36,763 bases of DNA from a virus (taxonomy: Duplodnaviria > Caudoviricetes), in the IMG/VR virus record IMGVR_UViG_3300048576_000532, positions 1 to 36,763 of that record; one strand, 5' to 3'. The notes below the pieces were generated by a model that had not been told where the DNA came from, searched no databases, and was given only the letters and a program-made list of their open reading frames with translations. The translations under genes were made by a program, and so were the position numbers. Shown here piece after piece: positions 1,477 through 15,085 of the stretch. Positions within the stretch are counted from its first letter, which is position 1; each line of letters starts with the position of its first letter.

Positions 1477-1725
1477 CTACAGGACGACCCAATCCGTGGC
1501 GAGCATGTCCGTCTGGGACGCCAACCACGGAACACGGCACCCGTTCGGGTACGCAGCATGACCCTCCGGGTACTCAATGTAGAGGTACGGGAGCGTCATT
1601 TTCGAGTGTTCATCCGGAACCTGAAGGGCAAGCCACATCCCCCTCCCGTTCCAGCCCACACGAGCAACTCGCCGGCCATTTTTCAGCGCGGCGAGCGCCC
1701 AGCCAAAATCAATGCCGTTCTCCAT
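1477..1725 (-). CDS. tad2: DUF2829 / Thoeris anti-defence 2 (Tad2)-family signal sponge
   Basis: Hallmark motifs F.WAL.ALK.G..VAR.GWNG.GM and VPWLASQTDMLA.DW in an 82-aa protein. Confidence 0.85.
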   Translation of the reverse strand: MENGIDFGWALAALKNGRRVARVGWNGRGMWLALQVPDEHSKMTLPYLYIEYPEGHAAYPNGCRVPWLASQTDMLATDWVVL

Positions 1726-6912: not shown

Positions 6913-7115
6913 GACCGGCCCGCTTTCTTTCGGAACTCCGCGAAGGCCGCCTCAAATTGGGCGAACGACTCGGGGGCCAGCTCGACCACTCCGCCACCGC
7001 GCAGGTAGACGTCATAATCCACAAACCCGGCCGGCGCTCCCCCTACCTTCCACGCGACCACCTCCGAAAGGTCAATCTCGCCGTAGGCCTGGGCCGATGA
7101 GAAGTGGAACATCAT
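6909..7115 (-). CDS. Hypothetical protein, paralog family A (copy 1)
   Basis: IDLSEVVAW motif; ATGA coupling to the RuvC-like gene. Confidence 0.7.
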   Translation of the reverse strand: MMFHFSSAQAYGEIDLSEVVAWKVGGAPAGFVDYDVYLRGGGVVELAPESFAQFEAAFAEFRKKAGRS

Positions 7116-7714
7116 GACTTCGCGCCCTCCGAACTGGTGCGAGGCGCGCAGATGCGGGCGGACGAAAAAGCGGGGGCCGGGAGGCAGCCCGAACGGCCCC
7201 CGTAAAGAGCCGAGCGGCCAATGAGCGCCGCTTCAGCTCGACCGTCATCTTTCACACGAGAGAAAACATGGGCCTCGTTCGGCCACAATTCCATTGCCCT
7301 GGCGCGTGAGCCGTCCTTGCCTTGCCGGACGCGGCACACGCGGCGCCATTCCTGCGGCGTCACCATGGACATGGGAATGCCAAGGCCGGCCAGCACGCCC
7401 TCGATAACACCCACCGCGCGGCCGAAAGCGAACATGGACGCAACGCCCTGGCCCGGCATAGAATGGACCTTCTCGACCACGGCCGAGACGGACGGGTTAC
7501 AGATGCCGACAGCCCAGCGAACAAGGGCCGTGAGTGCCGGCGCTGATACCTCGTTCACCTGCCGGGTGCCGCGCTTGACGCTCACCGTCGGCATGTCCGT
7601 GATGCGGACAATCTCGCCACTCGGCGTCAGTAAGGCAATTGCGCCCTGGGCCCCCGGGTCAATGCCCAAGATGAAAGGCCGTATATCAACGTCGGTACCC
7701 TGTTCGCCGTTCAT
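7112..7714 (-). CDS. RuvC-like Holliday junction resolvase
   Basis: ILGIDPG, VVEKV, F.FG...G, P..W, DGRAEAALI motifs. Confidence 0.88.
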   Translation of the reverse strand: MNGEQGTDVDIRPFILGIDPGAQGAIALLTPSGEIVRITDMPTVSVKRGTRQVNEVSAPALTALVRWAVGICNPSVSAVVEKVHSMPGQGVASMFAFGRAVGVIEGVLAGLGIPMSMVTPQEWRRVCRVRQGKDGSRARAMELWPNEAHVFSRVKDDGRAEAALIGRSALYGGRSGCLPAPAFSSARICAPRTSSEGAKS

Positions 7715-11013: not shown

Positions 11014-11047
11014 AGGGCCCTGGGGAAACCTGGGGCCCTTTCCGTTT
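11014..11047 (+). terminator. Intrinsic terminator of the accessory operon
   Basis: 11-bp stem AGGGCCCTGGG/CCTGGGGCCCT with GAAA tetraloop followed by TTCCGTTT. Confidence 0.75.
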
Positions 11048-11056
11048 GCCCTGTTG

Positions 11057-11163
11057 CCCCGCCCCTGCCCATGCTGCCCTGCCCCTGCTGCTGCCCTGCC
11101 CCTGCTGCTGCCCTGCCCCTGCTGCCCTTCCCCTTGCAGGCCGAACCAGGCCGAACCAGGCCG
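11057..11163 (-). repeat. Tandem repeat array containing five KOPS-like GGGNAGGG octamers
   Basis: Three perfect 17-bp units GCTGCCCTGCCCCTGCT (11073-11123). CCCTGCCC at 11063, 11077, 11094, 11111 and CCCTTCCC at 11125. Then (CAGGCCGAAC)x2.7 at 11137-11163. Confidence 0.9.
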
Positions 11164-11335
11164 CAAGAGTCACGCAAGGTGCGCATTAAACCTGCTCAAT
11201 GCTTGCCCGTCCGGGCCCGTAAGCGACATCCGACCGCGCGCGGCGCCCGATGTTTCCGCGCGGGTGGGCATCTCCCCTTCCATAATGGTCTTAAGTGCTG
11301 TGCTGTCAATGCGTTAGCACTACGTCAGCCATCGT

Positions 11336-11363
11336 AGTTTACATAATGGAGATTATCAGAAGT
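11336..11363 (-). other. dif: dif-like XerCD recombination site
   Basis: Minus strand reads ACTTCTGATAA-TCTCCA-TTATGTAAACT, an 11-6-11 layout. The XerD arm is identical to that of B. subtilis dif as recalled (ACTTCCTAGAA-TATATA-TTATGTAAACT). Confidence 0.85.
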
Positions 11364-11370
11364 ACGCCCG

Positions 11371-11383
11371 TAACCTACTGATA
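11371..11383 (-). promoter_or_regulatory. IHF-binding consensus next to dif
   Basis: Minus strand TATCAG-TAGG-TTA matches WATCARNNNNTTR; one-mismatch copies at 11304-11316 (+) and 11541-11553 (-). Confidence 0.5.
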
Positions 11384-11643
11384 ACAAAGGCAGTCGGTTA
11401 CGGATGGGCGCGAGAGGCGGCCCGAATGGGCGGAAAGTAGGCGGGCTCGGAAGGTACGGGGCGGGGGTATCGTACTGATTCGGTTGGGGTTAGCTGGCGG
11501 CGGGGCGCTGGGCGCGCGCTGTACGGTGGGGCCTTTGCTGTACAGTGTTGATTCCATTGGGTTTTCTCTTCGAGCCCCCCGGCACCCCGGGGCCGCCGCC
11601 CGAGTTATCGCGACCTAGGTTTGAGGGCGCGCCGTTTTTTTTT

Positions 11644-12354
11644 CTACAAACAATCCAATACCACGGAGTCTAGAAGAGAGTCAAGGTCGCCCAGCGTCGA
11701 AGGGTCGGGCTCGGGAGGTGGCGTCGCCTTTTTCTTACACCCCACCGGCTCATGGACTGGCGCATCGCTACGGCGCCCCGCGGCCCCAAGGGCACCCGTC
11801 GAATTTTTTGCAGACAAGGCCACCTGGGCAACGGCCACGTCTGCGGGCAGCGTGCCGCCGTCCCAGTCCCACTCAGCCGCGGCGGTAGGCGTCTGGCCGC
11901 CGGCGGGCAGTGCGAGCGTTTTATGGGCCTCCTGGAGGCCGGAAGGGGCGTTCTGCTCGACGTGCTTCAGCGCGAGGAGGTGCATGTCGCCGATGTTGAT
12001 ATTCACGGCCGCCTTCTGCTCGCCGTATTCGCCGGGGCTTAATTTCGAGGCAAGCCATTTTCGGCTGTCAATCTGAAGTCTGGCGACGCGCTCATCCGCC
12101 ATCGTGGCGTTGTCCGCGATATCCACGGTCTGCTCCGCCAGCGCAGTGGCGCCGCGGCGGCGGGCGTCCTGTACGAGCGTGGTCCCCTTGGTGTGCATCC
12201 AAATCCAGCGGTCCAGCAACCAGCGGGAGCAATCGAACTGGCGGGCCATCGCGTTGATGGTTACGCCGCTGGCGATCTGGGCGAGCACCCAAGGCAGGCC
12301 GCCAAGGGCTTCGATATCTGCGTTCAACCTGGATTTGAGTGGATGGCCGGGCAT
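11644..12354 (-). CDS. terS: Terminase small subunit (Sf6-like), inverted relative to terL
   Basis: N-terminal HTH and the signature LAE..VDIAD...ARLQIDSRKWLASKL.P..YG; long low-complexity C-terminal tail. The ORF is open to 12378. Confidence 0.85.
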   Translation of the reverse strand: MPGHPLKSRLNADIEALGGLPWVLAQIASGVTINAMARQFDCSRWLLDRWIWMHTKGTTLVQDARRRGATALAEQTVDIADNATMADERVARLQIDSRKWLASKLSPGEYGEQKAAVNINIGDMHLLALKHVEQNAPSGLQEAHKTLALPAGGQTPTAAAEWDWDGGTLPADVAVAQVALSAKNSTGALGAAGRRSDAPVHEPVGCKKKATPPPEPDPSTLGDLDSLLDSVVLDCL

Positions 12355-12383
12355 AACCGCATTGTCGGCGAGTCTCAACTTTG

Positions 12384-13672: not shown

Positions 13673-15085
13673 GTGACGGACACATCCGGGCCGGTTGCCG
13701 AGTTCATTCGATTTATCACCCTGTACCGGGACAACCCGGTCGCCTTCGTGCGGGAGGTGCTTGGGGTAGAGCCGGACCCGTGGCAGGCCGAGCTGTTGCA
13801 GGCCATCACGGCCGGAGAGCGCCGCATTTCCGTTCGTTCGGGCCACGGTGTTGGAAAATCCACGGCCGTGGCCTGGGCGACTCTTTGGTTTGTCGCGACC
13901 CGATACCCGGCAAAAATCGTGGTGACTGCGCCGACGGCGCCGCAGCTCTTTGACGCTCTTTTCGCCGAAATCAAGAGATGGCTTCGCGCGATGCCTCCGG
14001 CACTGCGCGAACTGTTCGAGGAGAAGGCCGAGCGCATCGAACTGCGGAGCGCGCCGTCTGAGTCCTTCATCTCGGCCAGGACCAGCCGCGCCGACCAGCC
14101 GGAGGCCCTCCAGGGCGTCCACGCCGATCACGTCATGCTGGTGGCGGATGAGGCGTCTGGTGTGCCGGATTCCATTTTCGAGGCCGCCGCCGGCTCTATG
14201 TCGGGGCACAGCGCCGTTACGCTGCTGCTCGGGAATCCGGTCCGGTCGAGCGGCTTTTTCTACGATACACACCACAGGCTTTCGGCCACCTGGAAGACGT
14301 TCCACGTCTCCTGTACCAACAGTCCGCGTGTATCCGCAGATTACGTGCGCGACATGGCCGAGCGCTACGGCGAGAATTCCAACGCGTTCCGTATTCGCGT
14401 TCTGGGCGAGTTCCCGCTGGCCGACGACGACACGGTAATCCCGATGGAGCTGATTGAATCGGCCACCATGCGTGATATCACGCCAAACCCCGACGCGCCG
14501 GAGGTGTGGGGCCTCGACGTGGCGCGCTTCGGGTCTGATAGTAGCGTGCTCATCCGCCGCAAGGGCTTCATCGTGGAAGACCCGCTTTCGTGGGCCGGCC
14601 TGGACACCATGCAGACGGCCGGCGTCGTCATGAACGAGTACGCGGACGCGAAAAGGAAGCCTGTTGAAATCCTGGTGGACGTGATCGGGCTGGGCGCTGG
14701 CGTCGTGGACCGACTGCGCGAGTTGGGTTTGCCGGTCCGCGGCATCAACGTGAGTGAGAGCCCGTCGTCGGGCCAGAAGTACGTCAATCTGCGGGCCGAA
14801 TTGTGGTTTGAGGTCAAGAACTGGCTCGCGCTCCGGGCCTGCCGTATCCCGAAGGTGGAAAAGCTCGTCCAAGAGCTTGCCGTCCCGCGATACAAAATCA
14901 CGTCGAACGGCAAGATGCAAGTCGAGCCGAAAGACCAAGTGAAAAAGCGCATAGGCCGCTCGCCCGACTTCGCCGACGCGCTGGCGCTCACGTTCGCGAG
15001 CCGGGCCGCGACGCTCACCCATGGATGGTCGCAAGAGGGCGCATGGAACAAGCCCCTCAATTTTCGTGTGCCGGGGCTGGTCTAG
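13673..15085 (+). CDS. terL: Terminase large subunit
   Basis: PWQ, Walker A SGHGVGKS, Walker B LVADEA, GNP, nuclease motifs GLDVARFG.D and SPD.ADALAL. Confidence 0.95.
   Translation: MTDTSGPVAEFIRFITLYRDNPVAFVREVLGVEPDPWQAELLQAITAGERRISVRSGHGVGKSTAVAWATLWFVATRYPAKIVVTAPTAPQLFDALFAEIKRWLRAMPPALRELFEEKAERIELRSAPSESFISARTSRADQPEALQGVHADHVMLVADEASGVPDSIFEAAAGSMSGHSAVTLLLGNPVRSSGFFYDTHHRLSATWKTFHVSCTNSPRVSADYVRDMAERYGENSNAFRIRVLGEFPLADDDTVIPMELIESATMRDITPNPDAPEVWGLDVARFGSDSSVLIRRKGFIVEDPLSWAGLDTMQTAGVVMNEYADAKRKPVEILVDVIGLGAGVVDRLRELGLPVRGINVSESPSSGQKYVNLRAELWFEVKNWLALRACRIPKVEKLVQELAVPRYKITSNGKMQVEPKDQVKKRIGRSPDFADALALTFASRAATLTHGWSQEGAWNKPLNFRVPGLV

Follow-up and report, generated by a model that had tools for sequence, protein, structure and literature searches.

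A dif-like XerCD site with IHF-like flanks beside the terminase genes of a provirus: a candidate genome-end element of tailed phages

What does a recombination site of the host XerC/XerD type do inside a prophage that carries an integrase of its own, and why do the KOPS octamers clustered next to it point away from it? Both questions are raised by positions 11057 to 11383 of the DNA analyzed here, the complete 36,763-bp record IMGVR_UViG_3300048576_000532, which is called the window throughout. An initial sequence-only reading had taken this locus for a phage-borne dif site, used in multimer resolution or alternative integration and kept silent in the prophage state by the octamers, which would act in cis as an FtsK deflector.

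The prophage state agrees with the record, which is classed as a provirus at a completeness of 93%. Its genes encode a tyrosine integrase, an exonuclease, a helicase, a Holliday junction resolvase, a DNA polymerase A and a primase; the packaging and head genes form a module of the podovirus type. The gene content is much like that of Sinorhizobium phage phiM5, whose large terminase subunit is 55% identical to that of the window (terL, 13673-15085, plus strand). The record begins at the stop codon of the phage's own integrase gene (PF00589; 1-1407, minus strand) and finishes where the coding sequence of a small HTH gene starts, and the attachment site is therefore placed beside the integrase. 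Integrase and putative att (window 1/36763) separate the ssb, exonuclease and helicase genes from those for DNA polymerase and primase, while in phiM5 the integrase follows the primase. A Tad2-like gene (Thoeris anti-defence; 1477-1725, minus strand; Pfam PF11195, E 1e-22) lies just upstream of the integrase. The dif-like site is found 11 kb inside the provirus, in a gene-free stretch that extends from an intrinsic-terminator-like hairpin on its left boundary (11014-11039, plus strand) to the gene for an Sf6-like small terminase subunit without an FtsK-gamma domain (11644-12378, minus strand). This small terminase gene is inverted with respect to terL and sits between a C-run motif and terL; most relatives have it in the orientation of terL and on the far side of the site.

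The site itself is present exactly as it had been described, as a 28-bp minus-strand element of 11-6-11 organization at 11336-11363, with the XerC arm at 11353-11363, the centre at 11347-11352 and the XerD arm at 11336-11346. The XerC arm ends in ATAA and the XerD arm begins with TTATGT, as in dif-type sites, and both arms and the 6-bp centre are intact. No second copy occurs in the window, where a Markov-1 model predicts about 8e-5, and a matrix trained on 35 other phage sites scored it at 29.2 bits versus 0.7 for the best unrelated place; uniqueness, expectation and score together rule out a chance origin. The arm pattern is common to at least 120 chromosomal loci listed (an estimated 480 or so), from many Acidobacteriota, from Bacillota and from other phyla, and both arms are identical in 19 of those listed. 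This match to chromosomal dif arms speaks for the proposed host-type XerCD site, as far as sequence can tell. The surroundings contain further elements: site and adjacent 13-bp inverted repeat fold into two hairpins (11325-11410; z -4.26), a 10-bp tandem repeat of 2.7 copies lies between array and site (11137-11163), and a sigma-70-like promoter (11282-11309, minus strand; 10/12 match) is directed away from the site, to the array and the convergent terminator.

Identical arms would also suit integration at the host dif, and the centre of the site bears on this point. Among 40 phage sites we counted 33 distinct centres, which vary by lineage. The centre of the window site is absent from 51 chromosomal centres, differs at three to five of six bases from 20 Acidobacteriota centres and is one base away from the commonest centre of its terL relatives. 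Tyrosine recombinases require matching centres, and centre drift therefore fits recombination between the phage's own copies and argues against use of the host dif; such a private centre probably already blocks cross-recombination with it. Phages of the IMEX type are well known (PMC5357621), and the window site could in principle be a second attachment site of that kind, a reading we regard as highly improbable. It has the arms identical to chromosomal dif arms in its favour, but the phage owns an integrase, whereas IMEX are defined by having none, and the centre is unlike all 51 chromosomal ones and drifts between lineages. Moreover, the window has one intact internal site instead of split, dif-derived borders, and on its left the provirus ends at the stop codon of the integrase gene. 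Use of the site as the attachment site was rejected on these grounds, and alternative integration is not supported, as the site is internal and unsplit and att is placed beside the integrase.

The host of the provirus is probably a member of the Acidobacteriota, judging by the dif arms and by integrase look-alikes, which come mostly from this phylum and are a lead only. A search of 401 Acidobacteriota genomes found no close terL relative, the one match being 33% identical. XerD scored above cut-off in four candidate-host genomes and an FtsK-gamma domain was present in five. Around the listed chromosomal sites (at least 120 loci), GGGNAGGG points toward the site in 64 cases and away from it in 7, and in two Acidobacteriota chromosomes, over the 100 kb that flank dif on either side, the counts are 80 toward versus 19 away. 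Of all octamers in two Acidobacteriota candidate-host chromosomes, GGGCAGGG is the most dif-polarized (34:4), and the control GGGNTGGG is unpolarized in two Acidobacteriota chromosomes (35:36). GGGNAGGG is thus likely the KOPS of the host group, with a polarity taken from candidate hosts. The sequence-only reading had proposed deriving the skewed FtsK octamer of the host as a check, and in candidate hosts its octamer showed the expected polarity.

Five exact copies of GGGNAGGG lie at 11063, 11077, 11094, 11111 and 11125, all on the minus strand and all pointing away from the site, the nearest being 203 bp from the XerD arm; number, strand, direction and the distance of roughly 200 bp had all been given correctly. 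The copies are units of a single G-rich tandem repeat (11051-11134, minus strand; period 17, 4.2 copies, 89% matches, with period 14 also detected) that points away from both the site and the terminase genes. Their clustering therefore counts as one event and not as five. Over the whole window GGGNAGGG occurs 10 times versus 8.0 expected. Within 1.5 kb, the XerD side has five KOPS directed away from the site and no KOPS points toward it; the convergence typical of chromosomes is not seen. The array holds two G-quadruplex-type motifs and gave no blastn match among cultured phages.

The sequence-only reading had missed the main context of the site, its neighborhood to the terminase genes. We collected 80 loci of terL relatives, 71 of them with at least 400 bp upstream; many are near-duplicates, so that the counts overstate independence. 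An XerD-type arm lies on the strand opposite to terL, at most 2.5 kb upstream, in 47 of the 71 loci, or in 54 of 71 when a one-base variant is allowed. On the other strand none was found, nor did any appear in 193 kb downstream. The exact arm is absent in 24 of the 71, and the XerC arm is degenerate in many of the terL relatives. A second, independent set comprised 120 viral loci chosen only by a dif pattern, of which 80 had flanks and 76 were tested. In 25 of these 76, terL is at most 2.5 kb away, with the site upstream of terL in 23; there the XerC arm faces terL in 17 cases and the XerD arm in 6, and the remaining two sites lie between terL and portal. Many of the pattern-picked sites have a G/C-run motif on the XerC side. 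Placements of a dif-like site between terL and portal genes were seen in L221 and L233 and in L400. Scanning with the small terminase (43 distant loci) yielded no convincing site, and a loose dif pattern gave 118 loci that are mostly chance matches in AT-rich phages, 12 of which were kept by eye and three used later. A metagenome scan with the capsid protein returned 11 loci, two of them with an XerD-type arm on the strand of the capsid gene.

In seven other terL relatives (about three lineages: L015, L019, L021, L036, L061, L067 and L078) and in MW202879 (L446), a serine resolvase gene occupies the dif slot upstream of terL and no dif-like site is present. Taken at the level of sequence comparison, the window site appears to be an element of the genome end that is conserved next to the terminase genes.

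The probable position of the genome end was estimated from phiM5, in which the annotated direct terminal repeat of 357 bp ends 35 bp beyond a C-run motif. A similar motif in the window (11572-11580, plus strand) serves as a putative genome-end marker, and phiM5 geometry would place the terminal repeat of the window phage at about 11260-11615. Such a repeat would include the site and both IHF-like motifs described below and would exclude the octamer array, into which a repeat 460-520 bp long would extend. No dif-like site occurs in phiM5, the sole relative whose repeat has been mapped. In cultured phages, dif-like sites do lie inside annotated terminal repeats, namely those of Gotham (1-459), Hena1 (1-519) and TV16 (1-340), and in Gotham the site is present at both genome ends. 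The Enterococcus phage MN939408 (L781) has a terminal repeat with a dif-like site (90-117) and an overlapping GGGNAGGG doublet (294-306); its site is matched by many related Enterococcus phages and by some Bacillus and Staphylococcus phages.

An IHF consensus had been reported 7 bp from the XerC arm. The position is correct (11371-11383, minus strand), yet the motif has one mismatch to WATCAANNNNTTR, the IHF consensus used for scoring. It overlaps the 13-bp inverted repeat (11368-11403) as well as a stretch that repeats part of the XerC arm in inverted orientation. Another motif with one mismatch lies 19 bp from the XerD arm (11304-11316, plus strand). The window contains 11 one-mismatch matches versus 6.2 by chance, three of them within 11304-11553. 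At most 70 bp separate an IHF-like motif from 21 of 40 phage sites (window included) versus 9.7% in shuffled flanks, and chromosomal dif sites show no such enrichment (18 of 80 sites versus 20.6%). Five candidate-host genomes contain HU/IHF-family genes, none of which scores above the IHF-alpha cut-off. Accessory proteins assist Xer synapsis at cer and psi, and IHF takes part in packaging at lambda cos. By analogy, the IHF-like motifs may help Xer synapsis or, alternatively, packaging.

We hold with moderate confidence that the window contains a genome-end XerCD/IHF cassette beside the terminase genes, likely within a direct terminal repeat, whose two copies are recombined by the host XerCD for circularization or monomerization. 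The site, its placement, the conservation of place and strand across relatives, the IHF-like flanks and the lineage-specific centres are the observations behind it. Location in a terminal repeat, binding and recombination by XerCD and the barring of host dif by the private centre are what we infer from them, and IHF bending might aid a route independent of FtsK. Several points weigh against the cassette: phiM5 has no dif-like site, the exact arm is missing in 24 of 71 relatives, no IHF-alpha scored above cut-off in five candidate hosts, the degenerate XerC arms of many relatives could mean binding without recombination, and the IHF-like sites could serve packaging and not Xer.

After injection, both genome ends would carry the site in direct orientation, and host XerCD would join the two copies into a circle or later split circular multimers. 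A clean monomer circle would be needed before the phage integrase acts at att beside its gene. The annotated Holliday junction resolvase (7112-7714, minus strand) could complete an exchange begun by XerC. FtsK reaching dif from the XerC side does not activate XerD. Translocase loaded on the array would move away from the XerD arm, meet the next copy of the site from the XerC side and leave XerD inactive; arriving from this side, FtsK stops at XerCD-dif (PMC2800217) and fails to activate XerD (PMC2673442). In the prophage, the array may damp activation, as on the KOPS-2 plasmid (PMC2680272), or let FtsK load again beyond the roadblock. The cassette as such needs no array. We regard the GGGCAGGG array as a separate, optional genome-end element, likely a loading pad that sends FtsK away from the end.

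Arrays of this type were followed through the viral collection, which has about 240 triple-GGGCAGGG arrays and about 210 arrays of the control GGGCTGGG. By one local profile, terL is adjacent in 12 of 80 array loci versus 2 of 80 control loci (Fisher p 0.009); 7 of the 12 arrays point away from terL, 4 toward it, and 1 lies downstream. Adding PHROG matches raised the terminase-adjacent array loci to 16, two of which have dif. A perfect dif site occurs 160-360 bp from the array in 4 of 118 array loci versus 0 of 116 controls, a difference that is not significant (p 0.12) and involves two lineages; 38 of the 118 and 36 of the 116 had flanks of 300 bp only. In all four loci the array points away from dif; L492 has it on the XerD side, whereas it is found on the XerC side of the other three (L523, L565 and L497). 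L492 (69-97) and L523/L565 are near-identical phage ends with the same flanks and array and with the polarity of the site reversed. L565 and L497 repeat the layout of the window, with array, site, G/C-run and terminase in this order. L608, the one locus found by a degenerate array pattern, has terminator, array, C-run and terL and no dif site; L493, L517 and L544 likewise have arrays beside terminase without dif. The near-identical phages L493 (2400-2700) and L517 (2300-2700) differ in the unit of their G-rich, end-proximal repeat, which suggests a fast-changing repeat. The terminal repeat of TV16 has a GGGNAGGG doublet on the XerC side, pointing away. Single KOPS at most 1.5 kb from 32 other terminase-adjacent phage sites, some of them close kin, point toward the site in 10 cases and away in 1. 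Triple-KOPS arrays also occur in 6 of the 401 Acidobacteriota genomes, and in eight such loci checked neither a dif arm nor terL was nearby. Neither the window nor 16 array-bearing records, 13 of which are fragments, has an FtsK-gamma gene, and no integrase was found in five array-bearing records, an uninformative result since all five are fragments.

These data bear directly on the proposed deflector, according to which the array was selected in a temperate phage to stop FtsK from activating XerD, or to reload FtsK past the XerCD roadblock toward the host dif. For the likely host group its premises stood up: no octamer is more strongly dif-polarized than GGGCAGGG in two candidate-host chromosomes, plasmids with non-permissive KOPS recombine less at dif (PMC2680272), FtsK halts at XerCD-dif from either side (PMC2800217) and the record is a provirus. 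The window phage is integrated, while none of 24 relatives (7 of them at least 90% complete) encodes a tyrosine integrase and no terL relative has such an array; this keeps the reading alive, albeit through a lysogeny link of one genome. The four other array-plus-dif loci all point away from dif, against no dif at any of the 116 control arrays, but this comparison is the non-significant one from two lineages, just one of the four recurrences is on the XerD side, and L492 and L523/L565 combine the same array with opposite site polarity. Further objections are that no more than two of 16 terminase-adjacent arrays have dif, that single KOPS at other phage sites point toward it by 10:1, and that the mismatched centre should already bar recombination with the host dif. 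What did not hold is a general module. The search among relatives for dif with a one-sided XerD-side cluster found no KOPS pointing away on the XerD side among terL relatives, and arrays beside terminase mostly lack dif. A conserved XerD-side shield was rejected in view of this absence, the 10:1 orientation of singles and the XerC-side position of three of four recurrences; selection for silencing in the window phage itself we consider unlikely.

Equally, the whole stretch may be a platform for packaging or end processing, in which XerCD and IHF have an architectural or end-protecting role without recombination, and the array is a slippage or G-quadruplex repeat, or one that binds terminase, and matches KOPS by coincidence. 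Many relatives have kept the XerD arm and let the XerC arm degenerate, as this account would have it, but the window site retains both arms and the 6-bp centre, and in other relatives a resolvase occupies the dif slot. For the array, the four terminase-adjacent examples without dif, the differing repeat units of L493 and L517 and the two G-quadruplex-type motifs fit such a role, while a non-KOPS array just as rich in G shows no enrichment beside terL (2 of 80). Small terminases fused to FtsK-gamma do exist (PMC8190038), but no FtsK-gamma gene accompanies the arrays in the window or in the 16 records, 13 of them fragments. On balance, we give this account a low probability.

The genome-end cassette remains our preferred reading, and it can be extended into a wider and rather doubtful proposal. 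Many tailed phages might carry a miniature chromosome terminus at their genome ends, made of dif, IHF sites and, in some, a KOPS pad. Host FtsK would load on the pad next to one copy of the site and run through the full genome length to the second. Site polarity would then be the switch. With the array on the XerC side (L523, L565, L497 and the TV16 doublet), FtsK would arrive at XerD and close the circle; with the array on the XerD side (window prophage, L492), the site would stay silent or FtsK would be reloaded past it.

If the cassette is real, host XerCD would be a common partner of tailed phages, lytic and temperate, for handling genome ends, beyond its part as integration target of small filamentous or tailless phages, and the way in which phages with short terminal repeats circularize or stay monomeric would have an explanation open to testing. 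Cultured E. coli and Enterococcus phages carry such sites. Prophages would then also be able to supply chromosomes with additional dif sites at ectopic positions, where FtsK meets a roadblock. The KOPS arrays of phage ends would, if confirmed, be a natural case of a virus steering the host DNA translocase. In the open-access literature we came across no account of tailed phages with dif sites at their ends, nor of a natural module that combines dif with reverse KOPS. What is new is the conservation across the family, the enrichment of IHF-like motifs relative to controls, the exchange of the site for a resolvase gene and the occurrence of KOPS arrays at phage ends.

The window locus shares with the chromosomal dif/XerCD/FtsK-KOPS system (PMC5357621, PMC2680272, PMC2800217 and PMC2673442) the 11-6-11 organization, arms identical to those of Acidobacteriota and Bacillota, and GGGNAGGG nearby. 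It differs in lying on a phage by the terminase genes, with a private centre and IHF-like flanks, and in having KOPS that are clustered and point away instead of converging. The IMEX phages and islands CTXphi, TLCphi and GGI likewise offer a dif-like site to host XerCD (PMC5357621). In contrast to these, the window phage has its own integrase, its site lies away from the border of the provirus and the centre is unlike known host centres. Non-permissive KOPS beside dif were engineered in the KOPS-2 substrate (PMC2680272); the array of the window is natural, one-sided, five-copy and 203 bp from the site. Lambdoid prophages have polarized KOPS under selection (PMC3603311), which are dispersed, whereas those of the window are clustered. 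KOPS-type recognition is also tied to packaging in the Bacillus phages Sam46 and Sam112, through a small terminase fused to FtsK-gamma (PMC8190038). No FtsK-gamma domain was found in the window phage.

The plasmid sites cer and psi are Xer sites with accessory sequences for PepA, ArgR or ArcA. As proposed for the window, host XerCD acts there on a mobile element's own site for monomerization, next to sites for a DNA-bending host protein, although the flanking motif of the window is IHF-like and short. Phage P1 circularizes by Cre/loxP within its terminal redundancy. The window phage has no Cre-like gene and its recombinase would be host XerCD, but in both phages a tyrosine-recombinase site would give a direct copy at both genome ends, given the placement in the repeat proposed here.
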